A stretch of 64,000 bases of DNA from Bilabrum cf. latius (taxonomy: Eukaryota). The notes beneath the pieces were generated by a model. The model had not been told where the DNA came from. It did not search any database and was given only the letters and a program-made list of their open reading frames with translations. This document shows, piece after piece, positions 1,854-60,921 of this stretch. The position numbers and the translations under genes were made by a program. The stretch is from positions 496,001 through 560,000 of the forward strand of contig OZ237737.1 in the NCBI GenBank assembly GCA_965178125.1. The letters are read 5' to 3'. The stretch's first letter is position 1; every line of letters starts with the position of its first letter.

Positions 1854-2057
1854 TGAAACACGACTATACCACGACCTAGACGTTGCCAGGGGCTACTGTA
1901 TATATATAGGACCAAACAGATGCGAGATCGTATGCAATAATCCACAAGCCCGCGTGGAATTGAGCTCGCAAGAAGTTGCCAAACCATGCCGAAGCAGCGG
2001 AACTTGGATTGCGCGGCGCCATTCTAGTTCTCCTCAAGTTTGCTACTACGACGCAAG

Positions 2058-6070: not shown

Positions 6071-6285
6071 CCCTGTCCAATGATGATGCGATGCGGCCTG
6101 TTAAGGGGCAGGCTCGCACCGGATCCCCTGGGCGACGAGTGCTGGCTTGGCTTTGATCAAGACCGCGAAAATCAAACAGAACCTCTAACGTAGAAAGCAA
6201 TCAGGTTGACAAAATAAATATTTCCACCATTCTGTGAGCGCGCTTGCAATCAGCGCTCCTATTCTTACCATGTTCCGTGATGGGA

Positions 6286-9200
6286 TCACTGCAGGTCCAG
6301 GTCACTCACTGCCTTGATCTCACGGACCCCGTAGTCATTTCGATCCAATGAATTATCCAGAGCGTCGATGCTCAGGTCTCTTGTGTGGGCTCTCGCCGGC
6401 GTGCCACCGGTTTCGGGGCCTGGTGGGGACCCCACAGCGGTGCATGCCACCGCCGCTGCGACGGCATCCGCGGGTGTCCCGGCGCTCCCGTCCCCGTAGG
6501 ATCTCCCGCCAGTGGACCGAGCGGTGCTACCAGCAACTACGTGCGAGGGAACCCTGGACGAACCCGAAGAACCTTCCATGCCGTACGAGGAGGCGTCGGC
6601 CTCGGATGATTCCACGGTCCCTGGGGCATTGGACACGACGCTGCCGACCCGCATCAGGTCAGATTCCCTGCCCCCCAACCCACCCAGCCCCAGGGGCAAA
6701 TCACTTGTCCCCAGGTGGCTGCCCGTGCCCCCATGGAAACCAGGGGAGGCTGATCCACTCATGGATCCTACTTGTCTGGCAGCACGATGGCTGGCCGTGG
6801 CTGAGCTAGACCCTCCTGCCGCAGCGGTCGCCCCCCCGACGCCATGGGCCCTTGAGAACCCCTGCCCTTGCCCCTGCCCCTGCCCTTGTCCTTGCTGTGT
6901 CCCCACGTCCTGCAAAGAGGCCCGGCGGCTTGTTCCCTGGCTTCCCTTCACCTGCATGAGGGGCTGTGCCTTCGCCTGCCTCTGGATGGCATGCAGGCCA
7001 GGGAAGGACCCGTGGCCGCCTGCGCCGGCAGGGTGTCGGGACAGCGAGCCTCTGGCTGCTCGGTTGGCACTCTCGACTGGCCCTGGACGTGGCGCATTCG
7101 ATCCGTCTTCTTCGTCAAGTCTCGGAGATGATGCGATGCCGAAGGCCTCGGAGGAAGAAGCGCCTCCATGGGCACTCGACGACGGCGAAAGCATCACGCT
7201 CCCGGCGGGGGACTGATACGACAAGGAGGCTGCAGTCGGCAGCTGCAGCTAGCGACGACGAGGTGCGTCTGCGGAACCTCTGCCCAGCATGGCCAGGTCC
7301 GTGCCTACCCGATTCACCCCATTCGCGCCCTCATCCTCGTTCTCGTCTTCCGAATCAGACCCTAGCCCACCCTCCGAACCCGCTGGCGCACCAACTGGCG
7401 GTGAGCCCACAGACGTTCCTGAGACCGACTGCGGCTTATGCGCACCGATAGCGTGACCTATCCCCGTCGCGGCACCAGCCCCAAGCCCACCTCCAATCCC
7501 TGGACCAGGCAGAGGCATCTCCTCCTCCTTCACTGGATCGCTCTGCACGCGCCTATCCCTCCCCTTGCCGTTGCCCAGCTCCTCAACGTAGCGGACCCTG
7601 ACCTGGACCCTCGATCGCTGGGTGCTGACGCTGCGCTGCGGCTGGTGCTGGCCTGCAGAGACAGCGGCAGCTTGGGCGATACCACCGAGTCGCGAAGACG
7701 TGGTCATTGCTGTCGCTCTCACAGCGCTAGCCGAGGAGCTCTGCTGATGCGAGTCTCCGTGCAGCGAGGGCGGTGCTGACCTGTCCTTGCAGTGCATCTT
7801 CATGTGCTGTGGGGATGCCAGCGGATCTAACGGATCGTCAAGGATGCTGGCAGCGCTACTCGGATGGCTGACTCGGCCTGACACGCGCTGGTGCGAGTCG
7901 CGCTGTGCGTGCAGCACCCAGGGTCGCGATTTTGCCCGCAGCAGACCGGGCTGCTGCTGCTACTGTGCCTCAAAGTGAGACACCTGTCTGGCCGAGGAGC
8001 TGCGGACCAGGGGACTCACTGGACCGTCACCGCTCTCGTTCTCATCGGAAGCGGCCAGCTGCATGGGGGGCTGGTCAGGCACGCCGTCTGAGTTCAGGGG
8101 AGGAGCCCATGTGTTCCCCGCACCGGAGTTAGAGCCTGAGTTGCCTTCATTTCCACGCTGAGCAACGCCAGCGCGCTTCAGTCTGCCAGTTCCGGAGGGC
8201 ATGCGAGCCGAGGCAGAGCTTGCCGAGCTGCCCACAGCGAGACTGGCGGACTTGAACAGACCTGGCTGCCTGAGCGCATGGCTGCTGGGCGCTCTGGACG
8301 CTATGCCATGCGCGCCCAGCCCGAGAATACCCTGCATGGATCCTCCCACTGGTTGCGCGTCACCGCCGCCGTGCCCTGACGTGACACCCCTGGACCCTTG
8401 CTTCAGAGCAGCAAGTAGAGTGGGTGAGGCCAGGGCCTCGGGGACCGAGGAACTCTCCACGCCTGCTTTCCCTGCGGTGCTGCGGCTCTGCACGCTCACC
8501 GCTTTGATCGTTAAAGGTGCTCGTGTGCGCCTCCAGTTGCGGGTCGCGCCAAAGCTGCCGCCTGTGGGTGCAGCTGGTACAGGGACAGGGACAGGGACAG
8601 GGGTAGGAGTAGGGAAGGGGCCGGCGTCAAACCCAGACGAATTGTTCCCTGGGGCGTTTCTCAAGGTCCCATAATCATTTCTGTCTGCTGCTGTCGTCCA
8701 CGCCTGCCGGCTCTGTTCCCCAGGTCTGCGAGGGAGGGGCGTTTCCAGCACCCCGCTGGGGTCATCGTCACCCTCATCGTGCTCGTCCTCCCCGAGGCCA
8801 TCATGCGCGCCGCCATGCAGTGCATCCACGGGCCCCGTCACTCCGACGGCTCCCTCCTGCCAAGCCCTGCCTTCTCTAGAGCCGGCTCGCCGCTCGCCGT
8901 TCGGGGTAGACAGGTCCTCTGAGGCCCCCATCACCACCATGCCGCCCGCGGTGCCGTCCGTGTCCGTGGGGGTGGGGACGTTTCCCAGCCCGTTGCCGTG
9001 GGCGTGCGGCTTCAGGGGTCCGTCGGGATCGAGGCTCACGGCCGCATCGGATATAGGCTCCGGATCCGTGCCGATGACCACCACGGCTCCCCCTGCGCCG
9101 GGAATCGTCGCTGTCGTGGCAAGGGCACCTGCGGCGCGCATGGCCGCCGCCTCCTCCATATTTCTGATTGCGATTCTCTGGTTGACGAGATGCACTGCGA

Positions 9201-10410
9201 TGAAGATGACCCCGATGCCCAACACGCAGCCGATGAGGCCGACCACCCACGGATCGGCGCCCCAGAAGGCCTTGCCCTGACCATCGCCGGTCTTCCCGCG
9301 GCCGGTGGTGATGTTTCCGCTAATGGGGGAGGAGCTGGGGCTCGCGACAGGAGGTGCCGTGCTCGGTCGCTTGATGGCCGAGATCTGCATCCCCGCGACC
9401 TGCTCCGTTGAAACGAGCAGTCCGTTCTCCTGCATGGTTCTCGCCAGCTCGCCGCTCGCAAGCGCCTCTTGAATGGCACTTTCCTTCGCATCGATCCAGG
9501 AATCTGGTTTTCTGCCAGAGCCGTCCACGTTAGACGCCATCAGGCGCAGAAGGACCTGGCATCTGCCGGTCGTGACGATCGGCTGCACCGTCGATGATGA
9601 ACCGCTGTGCGGGGAGCGGCTCCCTTCTTCGGGTCCCTACCGCGCGCCAGATGTACTCATCTGCTCTCCATTACCAGAGCTATTTGATGATGGAGAAGGA
9701 GAGGGTGGCGGTGGTCGCGAAGTGCCGGGGGGTGGTGGCCTCGGCCTCGGCGGATTGCTGGCCTGCAGTTCTCGGCGTCCCGAGCGCAGACCAGGCTACA
9801 ACGTCCGAAGATGCATCACGAAAATTTCAATGGGAGACACGGTAGCTTTCGCAGCAAACGAGGCGACCAAAGCTTGCCCGTGCTCGCTTAGCTGCACTGG
9901 AGTGCCCGGGAACGTGGAGGCTCCCGGCGGCGGACCATCCACTCGCTCAATCCCCCGTCCGGCGACCAGTGTCACCGCACTGATATTTACCAGTGTTACA
10001 TTAAACTCTACAAAGCTTACTTTAGGCCACTAGATGTTGCTAGATGGCAGCGGTAAATCGCCACCTTCTTGCAAATACCTATTCTGCACTCCTGTCCGTC
10101 CCACTGTACGCCAGGTAGGTCTAATGATGTCCCGCGCACCTGTAGAGCTACCCGATGTAATATCGAGGCAATGCTCCGATTCAGAACTGTCCCGCGCATT
10201 GGCACTGGCATGGCCACAAGCGAACGGAGCGGTTACGATTCGCTTCGGGGCTGCGACTCGTCCGCGAAACGACGTTGATACCCCGACTACAGCATGAGCT
10301 GATAGTAACAAACTCATTATTGCACATAGCCGCATCATGCCTGAAGCTAAGCCGCCGGATTGGCTGGACGCCGCCCTCGAAGACAAGCCTACGCCCTCGT
10401 GGTGGTTCAT
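6286..10410 (-). CDS. Hypothetical type I membrane protein, ~1370 aa (signal peptide, single TM, long low-complexity tail); in-frame TAG at 10030, 9796, 9637, 7960, 7249
   Basis: Four listed ORFs share one frame and are separated only by TAG. Signal-like MRLCAIMSLLLSAHAVVG; TM WVVGLIGCVLGIGVIFIAVHLV; the TAG at 7960 lies in CAG TAG CAG CAG CAG. Ends TGA. Confidence 0.75.
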
Positions 10411-10679
10411 CGCAATGGCTACGGCAAAACCCAGCTATACCTCAAACCAATTCTGTGTATGAGACCCAATCCATGGATGTACACACTTTAGAATCGTCTG
10501 AGAGCCCTGTTTGTGGGTGATTGGACTTCGGTTTCGCGGAGTGTGCGGGCCTCCGTGGGGCGTGGCGCGTGCGACCATTTTGGTCGCAAGCGACCGCAAC
10601 GAAACAATTTCCAAGCAGCGTGACAGCAAACGAGCGATACATCTCCAGATTACGATACAATAATTGATTAAATGATAAA

Positions 10680-12653
10680 TTACCCGTTCGCCGCTTCGCC
10701 TGGCGCGGAACTCGAATTCCCAGTTCCAGAATCCCTACTGCCTGCTGCTGCCAACGCACCGCCGGCCCCCGCAGCAGCACCTCCCTGCCCGGGAGCAGCC
10801 CCAGCACCGGCTTCTCCCGAGACTGCGGCAGCGGCGCTTGAAGCCCTCTGATTTCCATCCTACCCCCCTGCTCCGTTCGCATCCTCCCCGGAACCGCCCG
10901 ACCCCAAGCCAGCACCCCCACTGTCTGACTGCTCTGCGCTGCCGTGCGATGCACCCTGCTGCTCCACCCCAACGCCGCCCCCGGAACCTCCGTTGTCGGT
11001 ACCAGGGGCCTGCCTCTCCCCGTCAGCACCCGCCTAATCACCCCCCTGCGCTGCTTCCTGCGCCTGAGCCTGCCCCTGCGCCTGCGCCCGCTCCCGCGCC
11101 CGAGCCTGCCCCTGAGCCTGCGCCCGCAAGTGGTCAGCAAGGCCGCCGCCGCCCGCTTCCTGCGGCCCGAAGGCTGCGTGCACGTCTGCGTCCATGACGC
11201 GGCCCCTTTCCCCGTTCGCCTACGCGGGGTCTCCGCCGCATAGGGAATACACCAGTCCCCCGCAGGCATCGATTCCATTGGATCCGAAGCCATCCGCCCA
11301 CGCAATCCAGAGGTAGGCAAGGGCCAAAGAGGCGCCCACGAGGAGCACTGCGGTTGCGATTCCGAATCCGCCCACTGTGCGCGCGTCCCTCAGCAGCACC
11401 TCCCTGAGCTCTCTGCGGTCGTCGTTGTACGTTCTCCGCTGCGACAAGGTCAGGTCGTCCCAGATGTCCCGCGTCAGTCGGCTGCGACGGGGGTGGGATA
11501 CGGGGGGTGGAATACGGAGGGGGTGGGACACGGGGGGGGAGGGGGCGGTGGGGCGGTGCGATTTCTTCGAGACGCGCGCAAGTACAGGCACAGGAGAGAA
11601 ATAAGGGTGGGGGGCTGCCAACCACCAGCTGATGGAGGCGTGCTGCCCTCAGAGCTTGTGGGTGGGGAGCGGTCCCGAGCCAACAAACTCACTTGACTGC
11701 CGCGCGGGATCGAATCCCATTGAGCGCCCAGGACGCTCCAATCAGCAACATCACGCCGGCCACCAGAGCCAGCAACGCGGACGCAAGAGCAAGCCACGGC
11801 CTGTGCAATCTTGCCCCCAGCAGGACTGCCGGCGCGACGACGAGCGCCACCACGGCCGATGCCGGGAACGCTGCTCTAGACGCCACTGTCGATGCAACTG
11901 ACGTGTCATCCCTGAAGCAATAATCGTTTATTACACACATGACGGGCACACCCGTCAGGATCATCCCAAGCGCAAGCGCTGCCAGGAGAACTGCAGTGCG
12001 CCTGGCGCACACGCCGTAGGAGAAGAGAGCGAGCGTGACGGCGTCGCCCTCTGCCTCCTTGCTCGTCTCCTCTTGCTTTGCCCGGCCGTGTACCAGGCGT
12101 ATGGCGCCTGGTACATTAGGATCTGGCTCTGATCGAACGGCAGGGGCAAGCGGCCCAAGCCCCAGCCTGGCAAGCCGCCGTGAGAGCAGCAAAGAAGGCA
12201 CCCGGTCGAGAGCAGAGGGCGGCGGTAGCGAGCCCTGCAGAATCGTTGCCGTGTTCGGGCCGTCCCATAGCTCTTCCAGAGGTACTGTGCTGAACTCATG
12301 ACCCTGTCCATCTGTTCGTCTGGATGGGCCTACTCTCAATGCTCGTCTCCAAGGCTCCTGCGGACCGCCGGAAGGTTGCAGCTCACCCGGCTAGGCGCTA
12401 TCGTTTTGCTGAATAGACGTGGGCGGTTGCCCTGATCCTACTAGTCCAGATGATGGCGCCTGTGTTGAATCTTGCTACCCCGCTTCCGCCTAGGCAGGTT
12501 GCTACCCTGTACCTGCAAATAATCGGTGCAACGGTCTGAAACAGCTAATCGGAACATTTAGAAGTATGCACCGATTTCAGAGAATCAAAACAGACATGCT
12601 GTCACAACTTAATCACTATTCAACTCACTACCTCCTATCTGAGGGGCTGACAT
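10680..12653 (-). CDS. Four-TM membrane protein with tetraspanin-like topology (no CCG motif); introns 12513-12628 and 11482-11692; about 7 in-frame TAG
   Basis: GTGAGT donors and GCAG acceptors join the exons in phase. Three close TMs, a loop, a fourth TM and a Gly/Ala/Gln-rich tail. Ends TAA at 10680-10682, followed by AT-rich sequence. Confidence 0.65.
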
Positions 12654-12759
12654 CAAGCACAAGGCGATAAATTGTCCCTCACCGCGCAGTTGCTGTTTGC
12701 ATTTAAACATATCGTTACATACAAATATACCATACTTTCTGAAGACACTATCGATCGCT

Positions 12760-13671
12760 ATGGCTGGCGCGTCTGATGAGCCAGAAATCATTCGAGTGAC
12801 AATTAATAAATCATTTGTGTACAAGCTTCCGGTGCGCCCGTCTGCTGAGGGCCACAAAGCCAAAGAATGGCGGGACCAAGTCTGGGCTGGTCGCACTCAA
12901 TTCGTTCGAAGAGGCGATGAAGCTGCTATTCGACTTTCCAACCCATCCACCGGAAAAGTGTTTGCTGTAGCTCCTGTCCGAATCGGAGGGCCTCCTGTCC
13001 TTGAAAAAGGTGAGCAATGTCGAAGTATGCCAAGATATCCCAAGTTGCAGTAATGTCGAAGTATGCGTAGTCGGATTGCAACAAATTTGCGGCCATAATC
13101 TCTTTGCAATCCCCGCGCCCTCGCAGTGTCGGACAGTAGCAGATACTTTGTACTGCGCGTGGAAAACGCGAAGGGAAAGCATGCATTCATTGGGTTGGCG
13201 ATGAGCCAGCGAAGCGATGCCTTTGACCTGCAAATTGCTTTGTCGGAATTCGAGGAGGAGCGGAAGCTGGAGACTGAACCGGTCAAAATTGATTACGGAC
13301 CGAAGCAAAAACTCCAGTTGGACGAAGGTGAAACGATTGCAATCGATCTCACTGGCCTGGGCGGCGGCGGATCCTCGTCGGGCAAGCCTGCATCGAGCAG
13401 CGGCGCTGCCTCGGGGGGTGCGGCCGGCGATGACGAGGAGGACCTCTTTGGTCTGCCCCCTCCACCCAAAGCCGGAGCTGGAGCATCACGGAGTGGCGGT
13501 GACGGTGATGCCGACGACTTGCTTGCCTTGGGTGCCGCTCCGCCAAAATCGTCCGGGAGGCGAAAACGAGGGGGAGGTGGTGGTGGTGGATCGGGCTCGT
13601 CGGCAGCTGCACCAGTGCCTGCACCGGCACCTGCGGCAGGAGGCGAGGACGACTGGGTATCGTTTGATTGA
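12760..13671 (+). CDS. NECAP: Adaptin ear-binding coat-associated protein (NECAP/PHear); intron 13010-13126
   Basis: VYKLPVRPSAEGHKAKEW; spliced VLEKVSDSSRYFVLRVE...HAFIGLAMSQRSDAFDLQIAL; C-terminal WxxF motif DDWVSFD; ends TGA. Confidence 0.93.
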
Positions 13672-14373
13672 ATTACTGCAGCCATACGAGTCTTCTTCTT
13701 CTTGGTCCGAATGCTTGCTGAACCGTCTGTGCATGATGCCCTTTCCCGCAGTCACAAGCTGAGCTCGCTCGAATCATAATTGACTCAGTCCGTATCAGTA
13801 CCAAGTACACAGTACACAAGAAAGCTATAATCAGTCCGATAGACACATCTGGCATGTAGTAGAGGGGAGTAAGAGGAGCAGGCACGCTCCTCCCCGTCCT
13901 CCCCTAGTGCCAGCAGATCGTGCTGCGTTCTCGGCAACGCACGGAAGAGGACTGGATCGACCTGCCGCCTCACGAGCGCTTCTTTGCGCCACACATCAAG
14001 CTGAAAGAGTGCACCCCACCCAGGCTTCAAACCACTCGTCCAACCCCCCCGCGACCCCCTTCTCCCGTCGACCCTCCAGTTGGCCAAAATGATTGGCCCG
14101 ACACAAAATTCTTGGGGAGCTAATGCGTGCACTGAAGCCTTGCAGGCGCGGTTGTCCGCAGCTCTGCATATCTTCAGCGACGCAGATCCATTGATCGTGC
14201 GCCACCCCACCTCGACCCAAACCACCACCTCACTTCCCCGCGCTCACCCACCACAGGCTCTGTGGCTACTTGCTCATAATTCAAGGGCAGGCGCGCAAGA
14301 CACGCAGCAGCCTACCCATGAGATCGAAACTCGTACGCGAGCCGAATCAGACTCTCTCCAGAGCCCCCATCAC

Positions 14374-17300
14374 TCACCGCATCTTCATCGTCAGCAGCCC
14401 AGCGATGGCTTCCGCCGTGCTGCTGGTGGCAGTAGCACCATCGCCTGCAACAGGCTGCCTTGCCGCTGCTAAAGCACCCAGGGCAAGCATCGCGTCGTGT
14501 TGGCCCCCAGATGTTGCTTGAGCTCCGAAGCCTGCAGACGCTCCAAACCCTGCAGACATTCCGGTTTGAGCCATGGCTCTTCCAAAGCCGACGGCGCCCT
14601 GCCCCCAGGATTGATACTGACCTGCGGTGGTGAACCGCGCGCCATTAAGCGCTGCAGTGCCGCACAGGTTGTCCTGACCGCCGGGTAGGATGGTGCCAGC
14701 AAGCGGGCGGTTGGCCTGCATCCCCTGGTGGCAATCCTGCCATATCGATTGCACCGGACCAGGGCCTGGGCCAACAAGGGACGATGGATGCAGTGTTCCT
14801 CCTGCTCCACCGTACTGGACTCCATGCAGACCGCGTCCAGGCAGGAAGTAGGGCTACTGGTGCTGCTGGTACTACTGGTGCTGCTGCAGCATCTGCTGCT
14901 ATTGCATGAGCTACTGTCTTCGGTATGCCAGCATGATCTCCGCGTCTTCCGCCTGCTGCTGCCTCTGAAGCATGGCTAGCTGTGTCCTCAGCCTAAGCTC
15001 TTGCTTGGCCCTCAGGCTAGCCGCCTCGAGGGCGCGCAGCCGGTGCAATTGCGCATGTGCCTGCGCCTGTACCTACGCTTGTGCATGCGCTTGTGCCTGT
15101 GCCTGCATCTATGCATGGGCTTGCGCCTGCAACGCAGCGGGCACCGACCCCATGGGCATTGACCCCATTGGCATCTAGAGCGCACCATCCGCCCAGCTGG
15201 GCCGGGTGTGCCCTCCTCGCCCAAAGGCATCGGCAGTTGCCATTCCCCCCGAACACGAGGCGGCTAGTGCGGCGAGCGGTGACGAGGAGGAAGGCCCGAG
15301 GCCGAGAGGTAGAAGAGGTCCAGCTGCATGTCGGGGCGACTCGTGCGCGGTCGCAGCAGAGGAAAAAGAGGCCAGCGCTAGCGTGCCTGAGTCGAGAGAC
15401 ACGGTTGGTGCAAGTGCCGCTGAATCCGGGAGCACGTACTGGGGCTGCTGCTCACCGTGCATCGATGCGGCCAGCACCTCCTCGGCGGCGTCCAGACGAG
15501 CACGCGCGAAATCTCGTGGCTCCTCACGGCGAGCGCGATCTGCACGACCGCCACTAGCAGCTCGGCGGCTGTCCAGGAGGATCGGATCATGCCGCGACGA
15601 TAGACGCAGGGAACCCAGCCCGAGAACTGTCGCCCGCCGCGGCTCGCCCGCGGTGAGGGAGTGGTGTGCCGCCGCGATCTCAGTGAGCTGCTGCTGCTGC
15701 TGCTGCTCCACGGGAGCACTGTCGACACCAGCCCCATGAATGCCTTTCCACCGCCCCATTGCTTTGTCGTAGTTGCGCTGGTACTCAACGTACATGTCAG
15801 ACACAGACGCCCCGGCCGGAAGGACGATCCGCACCACTGCCACGCACCCATCCGAGTGGTTGTCCAAGGCAACTGATCCAGGTTCGGCAGGGCCCCTTGC
15901 TCCCGTTTCGGCTGTTCCCTGAGATGCAGCCAGGCCGCTCAAGCCGTTGGTCATCTTCGCAGGCGACAGGGACGGCTCAGCAGCGTGTTCGTGCTTGCCG
16001 AGCGCTTTCTTTAGAGAGGCTGCCGCTGCGCGAGCGCGGCCCAGCCGCCTGTGCAGCTTGCTCGACGTCACGTACACGGGAAACTCCACGACTTCCTCCT
16101 TGTCACCGATGCTGGTGGCCAAGGCTCGCCTGCACAGGACTGCCAGCTGGAGGGCCCGCACGGTGGAGGGCGATGCAAGCCTGGGGCCGTAATGGGCATC
16201 GAGCGTGTTCTTTGCGGGCGATGATGATGATGATGCTGCTGCTGCTGCTAATGATGATGATGACGATGATGACGATGATGACGATGATGATGACGATGAC
16301 GATGATGCGGCGGCTGTGTCCTGCCCGGGTGCCTGCTTCTAATCCAGTGTTGGTGCCTGCTCTTGCGACTGCAGTCCAGCCTGCAGCTCCGTGCCGGCAC
16401 CAGCTCCCTGGTGCGGCGTCGAAAACCAAGTCTCCCACGTTGCCTCATTGCACATGATCGCGGTCTCCTCGCCGGTAGACGACCGAAGCGCGACCGTGAT
16501 GTGGCCCACCCACTCGGAGCCAGAAAGGAGGGCGCCGAGGGCGTTTTCCAGGCGAATGGCCAGCTGCTCCCCGCTGCTGGACGAATGCGCGGCGCCGCCG
16601 ACATCGGTTCCGCTGCCGTCTTCGTCGAGGCTCTGCTTGCTGCTGCTGCGGCTCCTCCTTACTGAAGATCGCTCGTGCCCTGTCCTTGTCCCTGCACTCG
16701 TGCTGGCACCATCCTGGCTGCGGTCCGAAGCCATCGCGTCGATGGCTCCACTCGTCACACTGAGGGTGCCCTCACCACCCCCGATGGTGGCGGCGTGGGT
16801 CGCACCAGCACCCGCGGTGGCGGTGCCTGGCTGGGAGCTGGCTGGAAGCGGGCTTGCCGGGGCGGGGGCTGGGGCTAGGGCTGGGGCAGGGGCGGGGCTC
16901 TTGCCGAATAGGTCGGCATGAATACCGGCACCTTCGGGTGGCTCGTATGACGAGTGATCGCCGCGCCCGGTTGCCTGTTTCTCCACGCCAGTCCTGCCGT
17001 CGGAGGCATGCTTGGCATCTAAATCCCCCCCTGCCCTCTGCTCGCTTTGCTGGGCCTCTTGCGCAAGAGGCGCCGAGGAGGAGGACGAAGACGGTGGAGC
17101 TTGTATCCCTGTCATGCCGGAACTGGCTGCCATCGAGAGCTGCTCCTCCACGACACAGGAGCACGCCGCCCCTAGGGCCCTCGCTGCGTGCATGCGGAGC
17201 GACAAGGGCAGGGGCGGCTGGCACCCATCCCGTATCTGCCCAGATCCTTGCGAAACGCTGGCAGCTGCAGCAAAAAATGCGTCTCGAATCGCCTTGACTG

Positions 17301-18634
17301 CCTGCGCCAGCTCCTGGGCGGTTCTCGCCTGCCACACGTCCGAGCCAGCGCGCCAGGAGGAAGGCTCGCCGAATGCCTCCCGATCGATTCCAGCGGGTGA
17401 CATGCACGCCTTCATGACCTGCTTGACGCTCCTCCAACTAGGAAGAGACTTGATCGTATTTGCTAGGCTTCGAAGCTTATCGAGGCTGTTGCTTGGTTGG
17501 ACATGGTCGGTCCGTTCCGAAACCGCTGGCAAAACCTGCTGGCTCTCTGCAGATGTATCAGCCAGGCCGCAACGGCCTACGCTCCTACCAATATTGGTTT
17601 TGCAAGCATTTTTATCACTGTTGCGCTGCACAGCTCCGGCTGGGTGCTGCTGCCGGGCCTCCAACGAGGCTCTCTTGCGCTTTGCTCCAATTGTCCCACC
17701 CGTGGTTTGCACCGTTCGCGCTTGCAACGTTGCGCCCGTCTGCACAATCGGGCCGACAGATTTGTTCTGCTGGGATCCACCAAGCAATAACGGTGGCTGG
17801 CCAAGGGTTGATCCAACATGCATGGTTTCAGAAGCAGGCCAGTTTGACATGGCGGAGCTTCCACTCTCCAAACCCGGGCCCGTTCTTGGCGAAGCAGTTA
17901 CAGAAGTTGTTCCAAATCCTAACCGTGGGGTCGTATAGCTGGATGGGCCGAAACTTATCGGGTCAGAGCTTGTAGTGCGTTGGTGCTGCGATGAGCAACC
18001 CGAACTGAAGCCATTGACTGGCGGCGATTGGGCACCTTGCGCACCGACGATCCCAGGCGTCTGCGTCTCAGACATCGAAAAACTGACTGGCCGGGCCGCC
18101 GAGCCCGATCCGACTATCCTGAATTTCGACGGCTGCGCTAGAACGGGCTCCGATGCATCTCTGCTCCCTCCAAACGTACCACTAGGAGGAAACTGAGACA
18201 CCGCATGCAAACTGTTCTGTGAGCCGATAGTCCCTGCCTGACCGTCCACTAGTTGCTTCTCTACCGCAGAAAGGGGGACATGAGACTTTGCTAGGGTTTT
18301 AGCAAGGGAAAGACCGGCTGCATTGCCTCTGCGCCTTCCATCTGGTAAGGTAAGGCACTCCAGACCGAGACGGGAGCATCTGGCGCACGGACGCTGCGGT
18401 CCGCACTTGCGCTGCGAAATTGAGATTGCGTAGGAAAGATGCAACTATGTGTAGCATCTCGCGGAGATGTAGCCGCTGAACGGGCGTCGCTTCGGCGGTC
18501 GCGCGGAGACAGCGGAGGGCGTCCATCGGTCCTGCACGCTGACCGCAGAATCAGTGGCGGAGTCATCTCACCTTGCATGATGCACAGTATACGCATGCTC
18601 GCTGCAGTGTTCTACCTTTTTGGCCCGAGGGCAT
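14374..18634 (-). CDS. Zn(II)2Cys6 binuclear-cluster transcription factor with poly-Ser and Gln-rich C-terminal region; intron 18412-18571; 8 in-frame TAG
   Basis: Splicing restores RACVYCASCK|RKCGPQRPCARCSRLGLEC (C-x2-C-x6-C-x5-C-x2-C-x6-C). ORFs 16339-18444, 15175-16161 and 14374-14754 are one frame linked by TAG. The 3' TGA overlaps a possible GTGAGT donor, so the end is uncertain. Confidence 0.82.
16220..16306. repeat. (GAT/GAC)n trinucleotide microsatellite encoding poly-Ser in the Zn2Cys6 gene
   Basis: gatgatgatgacgatgatgacg... seen directly; reads TCA/TCG on the minus strand. Confidence 0.85.
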
Positions 18635-19068
18635 GCTTCCCGGGCGAAATCCCGGCAAGCCAGCGCGATGCTCGCCCCAACCCAAGTGTTGCACAAATTC
18701 CGCCGGCCGGCGAAGTGTCGCGGAACCTCCGGGTCGTGCGCGGCGCCAATTCCCGAATTTCGCTGCATCACCTGCAAATTGTGGCTGCGAAACTGCAGGC
18801 TCACTCCAAATTGTTTTGAAACGCACTTATTTTGGATCTCTTATACCGCGTACTACCTCCTGTAGCTGGGGCGGTATCAGCTAGCCTTCCGAGTAGGACT
18901 ACGTGCATTACAAGCAACACAATGTGGAACTGCGAAAGTGTCTGACTCGTTCTTCTGCAGTAGTCTGGCGGACGAGCTAATCTACCGCGTTCGCGTGTGG
19001 GGTGTGCAATCACGTCACTGCCATGGATGGAATCGACCCGAGACGTACACGATGTCCTTCCCCGGCAT

Positions 19069-21991: not shown

Positions 21992-22239
21992 GTTTGTATC
22001 TTCAGTCTGGAATCTAGCGGTCAGTCAGACCCAAAATCGCACCTTCGCGCGAGTGACAAACGTATGAATACAAGATACAGACCTTGGCTGGCAGATCAAA
22101 GCGATACTGAGCTCGAGTCGCCGTGAATGGCCTTGCGGATGGCTTTCTGTCGTGCCCCGAGGGCGCCGCGCAGTTGAAACGGAACCTTTCAGAACCGGAA
22201 TAAAATTGAGACAGTGTGTGTCCGCATTCTTGCGGGCGC

Positions 22240-23634
22240 ATGGCAAGTGAAAGGTACGTTCGTCTGTCGCTGGAGGGTAACATATCTGCTGGAAAGTCAA
22301 CGTTCCTTGATGTTATTCGAAAACATTTGACGGACCGAGTTTTGGTTGCGTAGGAGCCGATAGAGTCCTGGCAGGTGTGCTCGACCGGAGATGGTGCGGA
22401 CACTTCGGGCCAAGTGGCAGGACCAGACGATGAGACGAATGTTTTGAAGTTATTCTATACAGATCCGTCCAGGTGGGGTTTCACGTTTCAGTCGTTTGCG
22501 TTCCTGAGCAGACTGAAGACGTAGCTAGAGTCTGCCAAGGTTCTCGAGCAAAGAGTGCGCAAGCTTGCGGACACTGAATCCGCAGGCACTCCAGGTTTGT
22601 ATGAAAAAGATCATAAGGAATCATCCAAACGAGTGGCTGCTCAAGATCCGAGAGGGTCTTCTGGAGGAGGTCCGAGAACAGCCGGTTGCTGTGACGGCGG
22701 CCCTGGCGTCAGCGATGGTCCTGCCGCTCCAAGAGCTCTCGTGTATGAGCGCAGCGTCCTTTCGGATAGATTCTGCTTTGCGTAGAATTGCAAAGAGACG
22801 GGACTGTTCAAAAAAGCAGAATGGGCCATCTACCTGCAGTGGTGGACGTGGCTCGTGCGCTCGTTCGATGGACTGCACCTCGACGGTATCGTGTACCTTC
22901 GGAGCTCGCCCGATACATGCCTCCGCCGGCTGAAGCGCCGTAGCCGGGAAGAGGAAAGCACTGTAGGCGCAGAGTATCTGGGCCAGCTCCACGACAGGCA
23001 CGAGAGCTGGCTGCTCCGGGGTTCGATCCCGGGAGAATTCATGCGACCCGTCCTTGTCCTCGACACGACGGCCGAGTTCGAAACCGACGCGGCGAGATCG
23101 GAGCACATTCTGGCACTGGTGGAGCGCTTCATGCAGCGGCTTGCGGCTACCAGGGTTCGCGAACGTTCGCTGAGCATGGACAGGCCCAAGGGCACGGAGG
23201 AGCCCGAGTCCAAATCAGGAAGCTTGGAATATGGAGCCGCGCTGGGCGGTCATAGATCGCCTGTACGAAAAGTCGGGGCTCCGGGTCTCGCCCCAGCATC
23301 GGCGTCGGGTGCGGGTGCGGGTGCGGGTGCGGACCGGAGCAGTACCGGGCACTCCAGCGGTTCATGTGCCACTACTTGTGCGGGTGCAGTGAAGGTGGAA
23401 GGGATTGCTCGCTCCGGTTCGCGCCGGATGGGAGGGGAAGATAGGGAGACATGGCTCACCAGGGTGGTGGGACCTGCAGAAGTTCCGCTATTGCGCGGCG
23501 ACATCGTCGGGGAGGTCCCTGCAGAGAGCACTAGTCTGGGAAGCTTGCTGGACGTGTCCGAGGGCTCTGGTGGGGGCGATAGCGGAGCGGCAGTTTCGGC
23601 GGCAAAGATAGCGGGTGTGACTGAACCTAGCTGA
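22240..23634 (+). CDS. Deoxynucleoside kinase (dCK/dGK/TK2 family); in-frame TAG at 22351, 22522, 22783
   Basis: P-loop LEGNISAGKST, EPIESW, FYTDPSRWGFTFQSFAFLSRLKT[TAG]LE, ERSVLSDRFCFA, DGIVYLRSSPDTCLRRLKRRSREEE, HESWL; ends TGA. Confidence 0.93.
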
Positions 23635-23771
23635 GTACTATGTGCTGTCTTGTATTGTTGAGCCAGTATGCGTCCCTCTGCGACGATGACCGGTGTTCTG
23701 TTTTTTCCGTGGCCCGAACTGCACGCTACCTACAGTATCGAGATCGCCAGAAGTGAAATATTTCTTGCGCC

Positions 23772-27563: not shown

Positions 27564-30500
27564 TTAGGTCCAATGGCCCTTCTCCAGCCCTCGCAGCGAT
27601 GCCTCAACCGCATCACAATCGATTGACCAAGCTATACTCATCGGCTTGCTTCCGCTCGATGCATCCGAGCCTTCAATTGACTTTGTGGAGGGATCCACCG
27701 GCAGGGAGATGCACCCTGCAATCAACCGCAGACAAGTTGCCAACTACTTGTCAGCAGCAGACGTGCCCAGCGTCGCAGGATACTTGCTGCCACGCATACC
27801 AGCCGGGGCATCTGAGACATCGCTCCGACGAAGCGTACCTGCTGCAGAGTTGGCGAGCCTGCTCGCCGCAGTCAGCGCCTTAAGCATTGAGCTCGGGAAT
27901 GCATCATGCGCAGCTCTTCCGGCGCCCGCTGCATTGGCCGCAGCAACCAGTGCGGTGCATGCCGCAGCCACCGAACTCAGCACAGCCTCAACAGACTGTC
28001 CAGCCGTGCTCAAAGCACCGAGCGCAGATGGTGAGCCAGCAGTCGCAGTCCCGAAGCCATCAGCCATGGCTTGGCCCGCCTTCAACGCAGTCGCAAAGCA
28101 CGCTACCATTCCAGCAAGCTGTGACCGGGCACAAGATGCGAGAGCAGGTTGGGCAGCAGCCACGGGTGCAGCGGTAGTGCATGCTTTGGCGCATTCTGCA
28201 ATTGATAGAAGCAGGACGGCAAGCTATCTGCTGCGGAACGACTGGGCGTCGCGCTTTGCAGAGCCGTTGTCGGCCGTCGTAGCCGGTGACTGCAGCACCT
28301 AGGTTGCGCTGATGGAAGCAGATGCCGCGCGACAAGCAGTTGCAGCAAAGGCACGTGCTGCCTGCGCTGCGACGATACCAGCGGTACGCTCCGTGGTCAC
28401 CTGCTGCAGCGCCAATGCGGTGCTTCGTGGCTTTTGCTTGGTCAACGTGACAGCAGCTTGAAGCAGCACAGAGACCCACCCACCTCCGAGCATGCCTTGC
28501 TAAAACCGAGCCGCGATCGCCTGGCTTTGATCCGACCACGCTGTGCCACAAGCGCCATAGACAGCCTCTGCAGCTGCCAGTGCTCGCGACGCTTGCGTAG
28601 CCCCGCTCTCCGCAAGTGCAATGACGGACGCCACCTGGTTTACTGTCTCCATAGTCATGCTGTCCACCCCACTCCCGTCTTTTCCACCTGTGGCTGCGCT
28701 GAGTCGCAGCCTGGCAAGACCCCGTGCAATGAGCGCACCGATGGCAACTTGCATGGCTCCTTGCTCCCGCCGAGCATCTTGTGCAGCGGCACGAGCTGCA
28801 CGCACCCTGGGCTCTAGCTCGCCTGCGCGGAACTTGCTACTCGACGCACCGCCCATTCGCTGCCCCCTATGCTCCTTGGATTTGGAGGACAGGGAGGCAG
28901 CTCGAGCCTCCATGCGCTACGCCGTTTCAGCGGCCAGCGCAGCTCCAGCTTCGAGCAGCTGCTTAGCCCCCGGATCCAGCAGCTCAGCGGAGGGGCCAGC
29001 GGAAGCAGGCTCGATCCCTCCGTTCGCAAGCTCGATCGAGGTACGCCGGAGCAGCGCTACGACGTTGCATCGCAGCCGGCCAACATTCACTTCGTCTCCG
29101 CCAACCTCAAAGTGCCGGCTGCCTTGCATGTAGCCTGCAACGGCTGCTGCTACTGCGGACCACCGCAGACGATGCGCGCTGTCGGTCGCTGTTGCTTCGG
29201 AAGCCGCTGCCAAGGGAAGTCTCGAACCAAGTGAGCTTCCATTTGTTTTGCCGGCCATACTCACAGCCATCTGCAAAAGAGCAACATTAAGGGACACGAG
29301 ACCCCTTTCTGCTTGCAGCAAGTGCGCGAGCAGTGATGCCCACTCGTTCATCGAGTCTCCAAGGCGACGCCTAGCGCTCTGCTCGGCCCGCCCTGCCTAC
29401 CCTTCGTAACCGTCCGCGATCTAGCTACCTCGTAGATCGCGAATACTGGCGCTATAGGCAGAGGCAGCTGCAGCCAGAGAAACTAGACCTGCGATGCTGC
29501 GTATCCCGTCCCATTTACGCTCCCCGGCGGCTCCCGCGCGTCTCATCTGCTCATCCACTTGTACGTACGACGGGACAGCAATCCATAAATCGCCCTACAG
29601 CGCAGAGAGGATCTACTAGGCAACTGGAATCGATGGCTTCGTGGACTGCAGATCGGCCCTGTACCTCTTGTCCGCCGAGGCTGATGTGCTCCGCCCGATG
29701 CTCTCAAAACTAGACGACTCAGGCCCGAGATCCGCATCCTCTTCAGTTCCGGCACCGTGCCGCAGAAGTGACAACACAAGATCTAGTCGATCCAACCGCA
29801 CAAGTTGCTGCTCTTGAGTGCCCTGCAGAGCAGGGAGGGAGGATCGAACGGCAGTGAATGCGTCCCCAATGGCGAGCCAGAGGGGGACACGTTCGTTCGG
29901 TTGCAGGCAATCCACTGCTCTAGTGGCATCCGTGATGGATTCAGATGCTTCGTCTTCGCGCAAACCAGCGGCTGCCTGTTTCCGATACCGCACTGCTACC
30001 CGCAAGGCGTCCTCCATGGCTCTGAGTGCCATCCTCGGCCTGTCTTCCTGCAGCAGAGACCCGGCCAGACCGGCACTGCATCGGATCAGCAGTCCAGACA
30101 GGCGTCGGAGAGCAATGGCGTGTATCTCTATCGTATCTGCCAAGTCTACTGCAGGTGCCGGGGACCCCTCCTCCTCGTGCACTTTAGCACCACCCTCTGC
30201 CTAGCTGGAAGGACTCCCCTCATCCTCCTCCATGCCTGGTTCACCCGAGCGCACTGCAGCCTTCTCGTGTGCATGGGTGACGAGGGCGGCCCGACACTCC
30301 AGCGCCAGCAGAACGTGTCTTGCAGCGCTGTTGAAAATGTCCGTTGCTTGCCCTATGACTTTGCCTGGGTCTGCCTCGTCTCCGCTTGACTCCTCGTCGG
30401 GCGAGCCCTGGCTAGACCCCGCCACCACCATTGCCATCGCACCAGGCGCCGAGTCATTCTATCCATCGATGCCAGCCAAAGGCTAGGGCAATTCGCTGTC

Positions 30501-33500
30501 TTGAACGGAAAGCAGTGCATCGGCAGCGTCTGTCGTGGTTGGTGCGGCTGACAAGCTCTAAGAGCGCAAGCGCCGCCCTGCCCTTCGCCTAGCCTGCGAC
30601 GCCGCCACAGAGCCACCTATCATCCCACCGCCCAGCGGTCCAATTGAAGCCCTGGATCGAATACCGCGCGCCACTGGTTTTATGCTCATCCCACTAGCTG
30701 CAAGCTGCTTGGATTTTTTGTGCCGTCTGTGGCCCTGAAGCAGCAGCTCTTCGGCAACCAGCTCGTGTACGTGAGCGCGTAAAGGCAGATGAGCCTTTGC
30801 CCACGATGGCAGTTCGCCAGTAGTGCGCCTGCGCGGTCCAGACTTATCTGAGGCGGCACTGGCGCTATCTTTGTCATGCGCATGCAGCGCCGCCCCATCC
30901 CTGGCCACATCACCAAGCAGCTCCACGCACTTAAGCAACAGCCTGCACCGCCTACGCTGCTGCCTTCGCTGCTTCTGAGCTGCCTCGCGCTAATTTCGTT
31001 CCCTAGCCCGCCTACCCCTTGCCCCCTTCTTGCCATACGCACCAAGCGGCGCTTGCGGCGCGTTCTACGTGTCGGTCACCGTGCTGCGGCCAATTTCCTG
31101 CGCCACACGGTAGCACAGCATAGCCATCATGTACCGCCACCTGCGACGGCGAGCAATGCCTTGTAGGTCAATCCCAGAGCCGCTCCCTCCATGCTCCTGT
31201 GCCCTCAAGTCGCTACCATCTGTATCCTACGTTGAAGCACCTGCTTGGGTGCCGGCGCTGACGCTTGAGTCGCCAGTGGTTGTCTTGGCCTGTTCCGAGG
31301 CAGGATGAACGCGTGTGCCAGCAGATGGACCAGCCTGGGGCCCTCCTGTCTTTCTCGTATCAGAGGCTTCACTGCCTGTGTAGACTGACTTTGCTCCAGT
31401 AGAATCTACGCTGCTGTCTTGCTGCTTGGCTTGCGTGTTCATATCGTAGAGCTCAACAAGCGACTGACCGGCCCTCTTCACCAACCAGTACGATGAGCAG
31501 TCCTTGGTGCAGTTGTGGCGCAGGAATTGCAGCAGCGCAGCACCACCCTGCTCTACAGCACTCGCAGAGAATGGCGCGTCATCACCGGACAACAAAGGAA
31601 TTTCTGAAGTGCTTACCAGCTAGTATCCTTGGATCCTCCCGCCGTCGTGGTAGCAGACCACGAGCTCAGGCACGTCAGTGAAGAGGTTATCCAGATACAG
31701 GTCCAGGCACTCCTCCTGGCTGAGACCCTTCCCAATCTCTGCCAGGGTCACAGCCACGGGATTTGGATGAGCTTGGTTGCGAAACACGAGCAGGTCGCTG
31801 CCTAGGACTAGCTTCAGCCCCGCAAACTGCCAGTGTGCCATGAACCTGTATCCGCTCGACGTAGGGTCTGCCGGCTGCACGTCGGCATGGGAGGATGAAG
31901 ACGAGCGGCGGTTCCTTGCGCGACCGGTTGCCACGGCACCTGAGCCGGTGGTATTAGCGCCTGCCTGCATCATCTTTCCAGACGCGGCAACCGGTGTGAC
32001 TGTAGCTGTAGTCGCAATGTGGGTTGAGCGAGCCTGGCTCTAGGCGCTCGTTCCTAACTGAGACTTAGTTTCTCTCCCGTACGGCGCTATAACACCAGAC
32101 TGGACCTATACATGCGCGGCGCTACGGCTTGCTGCTCTACCCCCGCTGCGTCTCTTCGCGTCGCTACTGTGAGCAACGGCAACGATACCCTCAGCCTGTT
32201 CTTCTTCCTCCTCTTCAACTTCTTCTTCGTCTACCCCCTCCAATTTGTCAAGACTTTGGGCTGTGCCATGCAGTCGCGCACCCGCATGGTCAAACTCGTC
32301 TCCTCCCACCACGTAGGCCGGGGAGACCATCTCCACCTTGCCATCCTTGATCATAACCCAGCGCAGGTCGTCAGAGGCTTCCGGCGTATCCGATTTGACT
32401 GCACCGCCCGACTGCACCGACGATGACGTCGCAACGATATGATCATTGGCAGTAGATCCTGGAGCATAGTCTTGCTTGGTCAAGCGCCCAGTCCTGGCTC
32501 GCGCTCGCCGGTTCTCTCTCGCCTTCTAGGACACCAGCAGGGGGGCAGGCTGTTCGTGCTGTAGCTCGGGCGACGGAGCAATCATGCTGAATGCTGGGGC
32601 GTTTCGAGAGCCCGGGCTTGCTGCTCCGCTTGCACCGCTCCCAGAAGAGCCCGCGCTTTGCGATCGGCCGGGCGGCAAGCTGAGCAGAGCCGTGCGGTCG
32701 GCTCCCCTGAGCACCTGCTGCATGTCTGGAGGGTCCAGCTGCAGCACTCTCGATGCCAGGCCTGCGCTATCAGAATGCACCTCCCTATCTGAGTAAAGGG
32801 ATGGATCCTGGGCGGCCGCGTGATCGGGCTCGGCCAACTGGCCCGGTCTTTTGGATTCTGCCAAGGCAGATTTCGGTCTATCGGCAATGAGATGAGGCTG
32901 GTCGCCTGGCGATTCAAGCATCGGTAGCTGGCTGATCGCTCCCCCTGAGGACATGTTCACGAAGGCAGAGTACAAGGTGCGACTGGACTGGCTGAGAGTG
33001 GCCCTCGTGCGCGCATCACGCCTGCCAGCATCAGAATTGGGCATGATCCGCGGGTCGCTGCGACGCCTCTATTCAAGTCCGCCGGCTGAGTCGATGGCTA
33101 GCGGTGCCTCAGGCTGTGGATCGGCTTGCACCGGCTTGCTTCCCCTGCGCTACTCTTCTTGTATGCTTCCAGAGGAAACCACCATGCCGGCATCGCCTGC
33201 TTGGACCGCTGGTAGCACGGCGATGCCGGTGCCAGCAACTTGCGCTGGCGAGCCACGCTTGCCGCGTGGCTCCGCTCTGTCTGTGCCTGGCTCGGCATCG
33301 AAAGTGCTGCTTGCTGAGGAGCTTTCGATTGGAATGCTCGGATCACCATCCAGGACGATGGTGCGACCAACTCGGTGCACTGCCATCGATACCGGCCTGT
33401 CAGACACTGGCATTGCGAAGAGGCTTCGGAGGGCTGACGCGGGGGCAACCACATCAGCGCTGCCTACGTGCGCTACTAGCTGATCAGAACGCTCCATTGG

Positions 33501-34001
33501 GCCAGAGAGGCGCTGGCGAATTGATTTAGCTTGCTTTGCAATGACAAGCTCAGCTCCAGCCCCACTTAAATCTGGCCTGTACCCGACTTGCTCCGCTTCC
33601 AACGCTGACAGAACTGCCTTCGCAGCACCCCAAGGAACCACAGCTTCCTCCCTCAGGGTTTCTTGTTGGAACTATAAGCCTACACCACCACTCTCTGACA
33701 GCAATCCGCCCATTGCAAGCAGCCCTCTTTGCGTTCCGAACATGTCGGGATCCAGACCAATCTTGCTGCTGTCCACAGCAGGACTTGTGACCAGCCTCGT
33801 CGGCTCAGCAGAGGGCGCACCTTTCGATATTGTCGCGACCTCAAGCTATGTTTGGGCCGGCAAATGATGATATTGTAGAGCGGGAGCAGCCTGTATTTGG
33901 ACCTGCTGGAATAAGTCCGGATCGATTCCATCTTGCGTCCCCACCAGAGAGGCTAGGTCCAGCCTAGCCGATGGTGTATGCTCTTCATTTAATAAATTCA
34001 T
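27564..34001 (-). CDS. EDRF1: EDRF1 (erythroid differentiation-related factor 1)-like protein, ~2145 aa, apparently intronless, about 25 in-frame TAG
   Basis: DVVAPASALRSLFAMPVSDRPVSMAVHRVGRTIVLD; LVLGSDLLVF; YLDNLFTDVPELVVCYHDGGRIQGY; LQFLRHNCTKDCSSYWLVK. About eleven listed ORF pieces lie in one frame; I translated the larger gaps and found no TAA or TGA. Ends TAA. Confidence 0.85.
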
Positions 34002-34165
34002 GATGCCTGAAGCCCAACTAGCAAAGTTAACGTCATGGAGTCCGGGTGGATGTGATGCTTGTGCATTATATCTGATTTTGCCGCCGGCGTGCTAGTTGCG
34101 AGCACATTTCCACGTGTCCGCCAAAGGCAACTTCAAGCCTGGGCCCACATTTACAGTATCCTGAT

Positions 34166-35611
34166 ATGCCCAAGTAGCGTGGAAACAGAAAGAAAAAGAC
34201 AGGGAAACCCGATTCAGAGGCTGGCGATGCCAGCAATCCGGGAAACGCGCCTGAGTAGGTAGATGAGAAGAAGCTAAAAATGCAAGCGGAGCAGGAGGCT
34301 GCGTAGAAGCGCGTGAAGCTGCTGCTGGAGAACTATGGGAGCATGAAGAAGGCTGATAGTGATCGGGAGGCATTTTTGCTGAAAGTTGTAGAGTCTATCC
34401 GTTCTCATTCTACGGGGTTCGGCCCGGCCCTCGCTCTCGGCGAGCGAACGAAGTACTTTGGGCCAGAGCACATTTATGGCGCGATCATGTCGTCTGGGCT
34501 CGTGGATCCGAACTGGTCTGGCGAGGGAAAGGGAGAGTTGAGCCGGGAGGACGTCGCAGATTCTATTTTCATCGAGTTGCTGCGGACCATAAACTCGAAG
34601 CTGTCACCGAGAGATTTTGGCCCGCAGCGACCCAAGCAGCTAGGCGCGCGCCCATTCCTGTAGCGATTGGAGATCGCCAAGCGAGTGAAGACCGGCGCAG
34701 ATGGTCAGCCGGTCCTTAGCAAGAAAACAGGGAAACCGAAAAAGGAGGTGGTGCACGCCCCGGGCAACCTGGTCGTGCTGCAGCCGCCGCAGGACGGGTC
34801 TGACGTGTTCAAGGTCGATGATCTAGCGCGCTTTATCATCAACTACGAAGAAGATGCGTTTTGGCAGACGCTTAAGCTCGGCGCGATGGCTGTGGCTGTA
34901 TTCATTCTGCTGCTATATAGGGTGTGGCCGATGTGGATGAGGACGGGCATTTGGTACGTGTCTGTCACGTTCCTAATCGTGTTTTTCGGTTTCGTGGTCC
35001 TAAGGCACTCCCTATTCGTGGTTCTATGGGTGTTTGGCGTGGAGCTCTGGCTAATTCCTGGATTCTGGGAAGATATTTACTGGCCTCTTTACAGCCTCGA
35101 GTTCGCGCCTGGCAGGGACGTGGTGCTGAGGCTGATCATGGCGGTTGCGCTCGTGTTTGGTGGATATATGGCGTACAACTCCGACATCACGTTCGACCAC
35201 GTGCTCGAGTCGCAGCAGGAGATGGTGAGTTCTCTGTACGAAGGAAAGTTCCTCACGCAGGGAGCAGCCGAGGACCCGTTCGCTCGCACCATTCCCAGCA
35301 TCGCTGACCTCGAGAAGCAGCTGGAGGAGGAGGAGAAAGAGGAGGATGGGGGCGAAGAGGCGGCCGGCAGCGCATCGGGTGCTGCAGGGGAGTCTCCCGA
35401 TGCTGAAGGCGAGTGGGGAGGGGAGCAGGAAGGAGTGAGCCAGCCTGGGTCTGGTGGCACCAACACTGCTGACGTGGGTCCCGGCGGTGATGTGGATACC
35501 TCTCAGACTGGCGGCGACAATGACGATGACGAGGACGCTGCTCTGATGGAGGAGATGCGGAGGGTGGCCGAGGAAGAGGCAAGCGGGGAGGAGCAGCGGT
35601 ACGAGGACTGA
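34166..35611 (+). CDS. SEC62: Translocation protein Sec62; in-frame TAG at 34175, 34256, 34304, 34661
   Basis: Basic N-terminus; INYEE followed by TMs LLLYRVWPMWMRTGIWYVS...VLRHSLFVVLW...LWLIPGFWED..PLYS; acidic tail; ends TGA TGA. Confidence 0.85.
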
Positions 35612-60682: not shown

Positions 60683-60921
60683 CCTCGCGTGCAGCAGGGA
60701 CTGAGTGCGTGGGCCAACGGCAGCGTCGATCTGGTTTAGACCGAAGGTAGCGTGCTGTTAAATCCAAGCGTGCGCGCGCACCCAAAGGGCAGATGAGCGT
60801 GGGCCCCCAGACCCTAGAAGTGGCTGGTCACCAGCCTCGCAAAGCAGTGCTTCAGCATATCACTTTGAGACTAATGCAAATATATGCATGCCAACCTCAA
60901 AAAAGCCAGCACTGCGCCTGT

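Follow-up and report, generated by a model that had tools for sequence, protein, structure and literature searches.

The nuclear genome of Bilabrum cf. latius very probably uses a variant genetic code in which UAG specifies Gln, and UAA and UGA are the stop codons (NCBI table 15); taken as a whole, this is the best explanation of our data. The reassignment is real and genome-wide, and the code itself is already known from a few unrelated protists. The residue placed at UAG, and the amino acid that the tRNA reading it would carry, are deduced from sequence. The window discussed below is the whole stretch of DNA analysed, 64,000 nucleotides with a GC content of about 60%.

A Gln-rich tract with in-frame TAG codons

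The most conspicuous TAG codons in the window lie in one gene on the minus strand, referred to here as the tract gene. X1, X5 and X6 are public runs whose contigs cover it.

18572..18634, minus strand: exon 1 of the tract gene, with the ATG and the first half of a Zn2Cys6-type motif (from the X5/X6 joint and translation)
18412..18571, minus strand: 160-base GT..AG intron of the tract gene (X5 and X6 show the joint 18411/18572, X1 does not)
14374..18411, minus strand: exon 2 of the tract gene, 1,345 codons plus TGA, with 8 in-frame TAG, encoding a low-complexity protein
16339..16341, minus strand: eighth TAG of the tract gene, outside the tract
14850..15180, minus strand: Gln-rich and (QA)n tract, 111 codons, with 25 CAG/CAA and 7 TAG
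15175..15177, minus strand: TAG codon overlooked by an earlier note
15109..15111, minus strand: TAG codon, QAQAHA*MQ
15073..15075, minus strand: TAG codon, HAQA*VQ
14911..14913, minus strand: TAG codon, RQ*LMQ
14899..14901, minus strand: TAG codon, MQ*QQ
14872..14874, minus strand: TAG codon, HQ*YQ
14854..14856, minus strand: TAG codon, HQ*P

The spliced coding sequence runs from the ATG at 18634 to the TGA at 14374 and has 1,366 codons, including 8 TAG, 76 CAG and 24 CAA. Seven of the eight TAG codons fall in the tract, as do 25 of the 100 CAG/CAA codons. The open frame from 18567 to 14377 contains neither TAA nor TGA. One more TAG, at 18447-18445 (minus strand), is not a codon because it is intronic.

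An earlier note on this DNA had reported six TAGs in a single minus-strand frame. All six are there (15111-15109, 15075-15073, 14913-14911, 14901-14899, 14874-14872 and 14856-14854, the note giving the low coordinate of each codon), with the flanking peptides correctly quoted, as is the TAG in EAQ*QQQ that it gave at 7960; this codon occupies 7962-7960 on the minus strand. Its reading that TAG sits where the repeats predict Gln agrees with a within-gene permutation (11 Gln neighbours vs 2.1 expected, p = 5e-5), a post hoc value, since the tract was chosen for exactly that pattern. The note also took this evidence to be independent of homology. That is so apart from one remaining assumption, the reading frame: shifted by one base, the same mixture of CAG and TAG becomes poly-Ser (AGC/AGT), and the opposite strand gives poly-Leu (CTG/CTA), making the repeat evidence frame-dependent. 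In this gene the frame is set independently of the repeats, because the splice joint completes a Zn2Cys6 motif. Residues 13-40 of the product, spanning the joint, fit what we take to be the Zn(II)2Cys6 pattern. A Pfam search of the unspliced frame gave no match, as the intron splits the motif. The gene probably encodes a Zn2Cys6 transcription factor, and the tract is most likely its Gln-rich activation region. The gene is an ordinary one; in its Gln-rich tail, which is the tract, a third synonymous Gln codon is merely conspicuous.

The note had proposed a comparison of TAG beside Gln runs with TAG beside runs of other residues. We made it in 163 ORFs (529 kb), picked by a codon model in which TAG, CAG and CAA cast no vote; the direction was as predicted and the power low. 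TAG filled 3 of 99 Gln-flanked positions (at least 3 Gln) and 23 of 4,244 positions flanked by other residues (p = 0.02), or 2/84 vs 23/4,190 (p = 0.09) when the tract gene was left out; by flank, it filled 2/289 positions for Glu, 2/310 for Leu and 0/82 for Lys. Gln adjoined TAG 1.23-fold more often than expected, and 1.16-fold within five codons with the tract gene excluded. Values of this size are too weak for run or neighbour enrichment to serve as a stand-alone test. The decisive evidence for TAG as Gln is homology, stop usage and the tRNA, and by these three the reading implied in the note holds genome-wide.

Other genes of the window

TAG codons also occur in other genes of the window.

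7960..7962, minus strand: TAG in EAQ*QQQ, in a separate long ORF (frame open from 11022 to 6289, ending in TGA)
22240..23634, plus strand: deoxynucleoside kinase gene (PF01712), 3 in-frame TAG, TGA end
27564..34484, minus strand: open frame of 2,306 codons with 28 TAG, EDRF1_N (PF23788), TAA end

The 5′ part of the last of these frames may be non-coding. Ordinary genes recognised by Pfam are M16 peptidase (3-2033), AATF (1941-3752), a FAD-dependent glycerophosphate oxidase-like gene (4097-6067), DUF1681 (13099-13668), MIF4G (19072-21597), Sec62 (34076-35608), polysaccharide deacetylase (58016-60757) and OTU protease (60925-62676). Tandem ankyrin-type genes occupy 36472-57638. Two copies among them (36472-41331 and 47308-52257), about 10.8 kb apart, are 97-99% identical, and a repeat array lies between them at about 45200-46600. 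Exchanges of TAG among these duplicated genes proved uninformative: near-identical copies retain TAG, and distant copies align badly, with three TAG/CAG exchanges in low-identity pairs.

UAG is a minor Gln codon

Dynein heavy chains provide most of the homology evidence. Nineteen stretches totalling 62,576 codons contain 280 TAG, 2,322 CAG and 405 CAA, and every stretch has TAG; in-frame TAA and TGA are absent. The PRP8 frame has 4 TAG and the eRF1 gene 2. When the dynein paralogues were aligned among themselves (201 of the 280 TAG sites usable), the share of Gln opposite TAG was 0.18, next to 0.20 for CAG and 0.17 for CAA. We also aligned outside homologues, 120 of the axonemal type and 120 of the IFT type, and 184 of the 280 TAG sites were covered by 50 or more of them. 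The log-likelihoods summed over these 184 sites were +63 for Gln, -171 for Glu, -210 for Lys, -364 for Leu, -473 for Tyr and -529 for Trp. The control codons GAA, TAT, AAA and TTA each returned their own residue. TAG falls in conserved Gln columns as often as CAG/CAA does (36/70 vs 428/816, p = 0.90).

The 163 ORFs have a similar composition, with 458 TAG, 2,984 CAG and 758 CAA, and TAG is present in 114 of them. Among the 19 dynein genes, the TAG share of Gln codons correlates negatively with GC3 (rho -0.88) and positively with CAA (rho 0.78). TAG is thus a minor codon, making up 9-11% of Gln codons, CAA-like in behaviour and rare at high GC3.

TAG ends none of the genes checked

Of 28 gene ends defined by homology, 23 are TGA, 5 are TAA and none is TAG. 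Twenty-five Dynein_C matches correspond to 18 genes. TGA closes 15 of these and TAA the other 3, with L091 having the least certain end. Four of five alpha/beta tubulin genes end in TGA and one in TAA; two gamma-like rows were left out of this tally, their stop lying beyond the extracted stretch. TGA also ends PRP8, GlnRS (locus L230 on G000:C33), GluRS and the DUF1681 gene, and TAA ends eRF1. A code in which both UAR codons mean Gln (NCBI table 6) was rejected on these grounds, as in-frame TAA is missing from all 62,576 dynein codons and TAA ends eRF1, three dyneins and a tubulin.

Codes in which the meaning of UAG-type codons depends on context exist in Condylostoma and Blastocrithidia. It is conceivable that UAG is likewise ambiguous here, being Gln internally and still a stop near the 3′ end of some mRNAs. 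The intact core motifs of eRF1 (see below) would suit such a code, and about 28 gene ends checked by homology are too few to reveal TAG stops at a frequency of a few per cent. The sequence downstream of TAG argues the other way. The coding score after the last TAG (+0.02, 72 ORFs) resembles that after the last CAA (+0.04, 85 ORFs) rather than that after TAA/TGA (-0.20, 116 ORFs). The last 30 codons show no shortage of TAG (25 there vs 313 upstream; CAA, 30 vs 522), and short tails are no commoner after the last TAG (20/82) than after the last CAA (25/97). In this small sample, 28 ends and 163 ORFs, neither gene ends nor 3′ depletion gave any sign of a dual meaning, and with TAG ending 0 of 28 genes we regard an ambiguous code as very unlikely.

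A candidate decoding tRNA

The genome has a tRNA gene with anticodon CUA (G000:C23:907607-907679, minus strand) that scores 69.8 bits on RF00005. Its minimum-energy fold is a cloverleaf (z -2.68). A genome-wide pattern search for anticodon arms with CUA or UUA returned 17 matches (35 in the reversed control). Fifteen of the 17 are nuclear, and tRNA-CUA is the only tRNA among those 15. No UUA tRNA gene was found among the matches genome-wide; intron-containing genes and those with unusual T arms are beyond the reach of this search. The cytosolic GlnRS would load the single tRNA-CUA with Gln, and this tRNA would pair with UAG, not with UAA.

We compared tRNA-CUA with 33 other nuclear tRNA sequences, a set that is incomplete and has no tRNA-His, as a search for a nuclear one found none. 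The closest is tRNA-Tyr(GUA), with 6 of 7 acceptor positions shared (next best, 3), 4 of 5 positions of the anticodon stem, and a variable loop of 5 bases. The D stem, on the other hand, matches tRNA-Gln(UUG), Glu and Trp at 4/4 and Tyr at 1/4, and G73 is common to tRNA-CUA and tRNA-Gln(UUG). The eukaryotic Tyr determinants listed in PMC9976931 are A73, C1-G72, G34 and U35; the bacterial Gln determinants given there include G73, G2-C71, G10, U35 and A37, and the portion of that source available to us gives none for eukaryotic Gln. tRNA-CUA retains C1-G72, lacks A73 and G34, and has G73 and G2-C71. Our hypothesis is that a Tyr-derived tRNA was switched to Gln, which would fit these features; we put it no more strongly because short stems in a divergent tRNA set may match by chance.

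The likeness to tRNA-Tyr raises the alternative that UAG has mixed decoding or stands for a residue other than Gln, such as Tyr (through the Tyr-like tRNA-CUA) or, in part, Glu. The shared acceptor and anticodon stems and the retained C1-G72 favour Tyr. There is also a small excess of TAG in conserved Glu columns (11/70 vs 50/816 for CAG/CAA, p = 0.006; CAA alone, 9/92), which counts against pure Gln. However, TAG occupies conserved Tyr columns in 1 of 70 cases (CAG/CAA, 7/816), the log-likelihoods of Tyr and Glu at TAG sites are far below that of Gln, and the tRNA is without two of the listed Tyr determinants, A73 and G34. The Glu excess would fit recent GAG-to-TAG changes. A TAG in GluRS that appeared to stand in a Trp/Tyr column was set aside when the column proved variable (12 of 109 homologues have Gln there). 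A residue other than Gln, alone or in mixture, is highly improbable, and we continue with UAG as Gln.

Other tRNAs of this genome have features of their own. In tRNA-Trp(CCA) (L220, G000:C40:414960-415100) the anticodon stem has four standard pairs, positions 31 and 39 forming a mismatched A-C; we saw no sign of UGA read-through alongside it. Two further oddities concern the loci L011 and L043, L046-L048, and L025, L035 and L039 taken together: the nuclear tRNA-Ile genes have anticodon GAU, which is unusual for eukaryotes, and several AT-rich Met-like or Pro-like tRNA copies form one family, some with mismatched stems.

eRF1 and its relatives

We found one eRF1 gene and one Pelota-like gene in the genome. 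The eRF1 gene has four exons and a TAA stop, and two of its codons, equivalent to residues 44 and 69 of the human protein, are TAG. Of about 160 homologues, 153 have Gln at residue 44; at residue 69, 154 have Leu and 5 have Gln. The protein retains GTS with T32, NIKS, E55 and YxCxxxF. Five of its substitutions, G29A, N30D, I35V, S60V and K130H, occur in none of the 160 homologues; G29A and N30D lie beside GTS, S60V in TASNIKS and K130H in YxCxxxF. Loss of UAG reading has been linked to eRF1 T32G in Iotanema and to L69A in exLh (in the part of PMC5304391 consulted), and T32G is absent here. Through G29A, N30D, S60V and K130H, and possibly L69Q, this eRF1 may compete poorly at UAG. No substitution is diagnostic, because the core motifs are kept and some eRF1 loci without any in-frame TAG likewise have Gln at 69.

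Two other eRF1 loci, each one gene on one short contig, bear on the code. The first (L140) is a 1.3-kb metagenome contig, 82% identical in nucleotides and 92% in protein. It reads TAG at a CAG of this genome and ends in TGA where this genome's eRF1 ends in TAA. In the second (L173, 1-1310), two in-frame TAG codons each align with a Gln of the sister sequence L167 (108-1433), which is 80% identical and has no TAG. The N domain encoded by L173 is strongly altered, with QIKS for NIKS, Asn69 and a Trp in YxCxxxF. In a quick eRF1 tree of 72 rows, hand-picked from 120 proteins and 80 loci, the L173/L167 pair is weakly sister to the clade of this genome (support 84). L173 is a candidate for a further lineage with UAG as Gln. 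The in-frame TAGs of nine more eRF1 loci (L179, L181, L184, L185, L188, L194, L199, L202 and L214) were discarded, being by context a C-terminal stop or flanking sequence.

TAG is present in independent runs and in spliced contigs

Within window positions 4001-23900, contigs of all four public runs span the tract, and none shows a different letter there. The assembly itself may have been built from X1. X5 and X6, which have different study codes, lack GT-AG introns found in X1; both behave as cDNA, the RNA nature of neither being on record. Their contigs, from which minor variants are dropped, show no other letters over 13794-16212 and 14055-16212, nor over the TAG at 7960..7962. The TAGs of the tract are not an assembly error.

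These contigs bear on the possibility that the code is standard and U-to-C editing restores CAG in the mRNA. TAG and CAG differ by one base, and the unrecorded nature of X5 and X6 and the loss of minor variants from their contigs leave editing some room. Both nevertheless skip introns and keep TAG throughout the tract, and editing would not explain the tRNA-CUA gene or the absence of TAG as a stop, so that it is barely credible. Pseudogene nonsense mutation, C-to-T decay or base-calling error can be dismissed: CAG-to-TAG is a common transition and nothing else speaks for them, and against them TAG occurs in the sole eRF1 found, in PRP8 and in all 19 dynein stretches without internal TAA, TGA or frameshift, 114 of 163 ORFs contain it, the four runs agree letter for letter, and a relative at 82% nucleotide identity (L140) uses TAG likewise.

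The organism

The assembly (48.6 Mb in 111 contigs), of which the window is G000:C3:496001-560000, appears to come from a bicosoecid-like stramenopile, a single-celled flagellate. Cafeteria roenbergensis was the best named match in both of two dynein searches, at 68% and 53% identity, values too low for the same species. In the quick eRF1 tree, a single gene, the genome forms a clade with Bicosoecida sp. CB-2014 (SH-aLRT 99). Two types of 18S, 77-83% alike, are present: a 1,700-base type arranged in arrays on the 1.33-Mb contig C12 (L101), and a 1,802-base type on the 17.9-kb contig C95 (L075, L102). The assembly probably contains a little foreign DNA, since the C95 type is, we presume, dinoflagellate-like.

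Contig C111 (38,401 bases, 24% GC) is the mitochondrial genome. It has 10 tRNA genes (ARAGORN), 30 of its 31 long ORFs end in TAA, and TGA is read through, with a tRNA of anticodon UCA. This resembles the mitochondrial code of Cafileria marina as given in the part of PMC6723347 we could consult. The bicosoecid mitochondrial code is an organelle matter; the nuclear UAG change is separate.

Comparison with known codes

The accessible text of PMC11687900 names Iotanema spirale, Hartmannula sinica, Trochilia petrani and Protocruzia tuzeti as having UAG alone as Gln, and no stramenopile. Iotanema, whose code change is confined to that lineage according to the text seen of PMC9161772, resembles our organism in reading UAG as Gln and keeping UAA as a stop, with a tRNA-Gln(CUA) predicted (PMC5304391; PMC9161772). 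It differs in being an unrelated fornicate with eRF1 T32G, whereas T32 is kept here, and in its dominant stop, UAA as opposed to TGA here (23/28). From what these sources give, its tRNA-Gln(CUA) was not found, and a tRNA-CUA gene is in hand here; the authors proposed an origin from tRNA-Gln(CUG), and our tRNA-CUA is unlike a copy of tRNA-Gln(CUG).

The ciliates H. sinica, T. petrani (PMC11687900) and P. tuzeti (cited therein) also read UAG as Gln with UAA still a stop. On the figures in the part of PMC11687900 consulted, 78-91% of genes contain UAG in recoded phyllopharyngeans (114/163 ORFs here), and UAA ends 87-98% of genes, unlike the prevalence of TGA here. A suppressor tRNA went undetected in H. 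sinica and T. petrani in the same text, while a candidate is present in our genome. In the rhizarian exLh and the TARA phyllopharyngean MAGs, UAG is uncoupled from UAA as it is here, although it is read as Leu, which our alignments reject (log-likelihood -364). The exLh eRF1 is altered at position 69, which is a TAG-encoded Gln in ours. Tetrahymena, hexamitin diplomonads, ulvophytes and Amoeboaphelidium share UAG as Gln with a tRNA-Gln(CUA), but UAA is also Gln there, whereas here TAA is the stop of 5 of the 28 genes and a UUA tRNA was searched for without success.

A literature search that left subscription journals and database records outside its scope found no report of UAG as Gln in the nucleus of a bicosoecid or any other stramenopile; a prior report is possible. 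The portion of PMC13768787 consulted holds nothing bearing on the question. The origin of tRNA-CUA may be new.

With some hesitation, we suggest the following as a possible history. The change could be the first of the nuclear code in a stramenopile. It would have arisen in a GC-rich genome that ends its genes mostly with UGA, through a switch of tRNA identity: G34C would have made an amber reader of a duplicated tRNA-Tyr(GUA), which then became a Gln acceptor (A73 to G73, U2-A71 to G2-C71, a Gln/Glu-type D arm), in place of the usually assumed origin from tRNA-Gln(CUG). The two UAGs in the N domain of eRF1 could feed back on UAG recognition, and the L173 lineage may have reached UAG as Gln with a different eRF1.

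Annotation of this genome needs table 15, as about 70% of ORFs are cut under the standard code. The relatives appear to use the standard code, Cafeteria proteins being annotated as full-length. The tRNA, eRF1, GlnRS and GluRS occur together in one contiguous 48.6-Mb assembly; for the earlier Gln cases, as far as the sources consulted go, the tRNA was predicted or not found. Both the eRF1 changes that would drop UAG yet keep UAA and UGA, and the source of the suppressor tRNA, are now directly testable.
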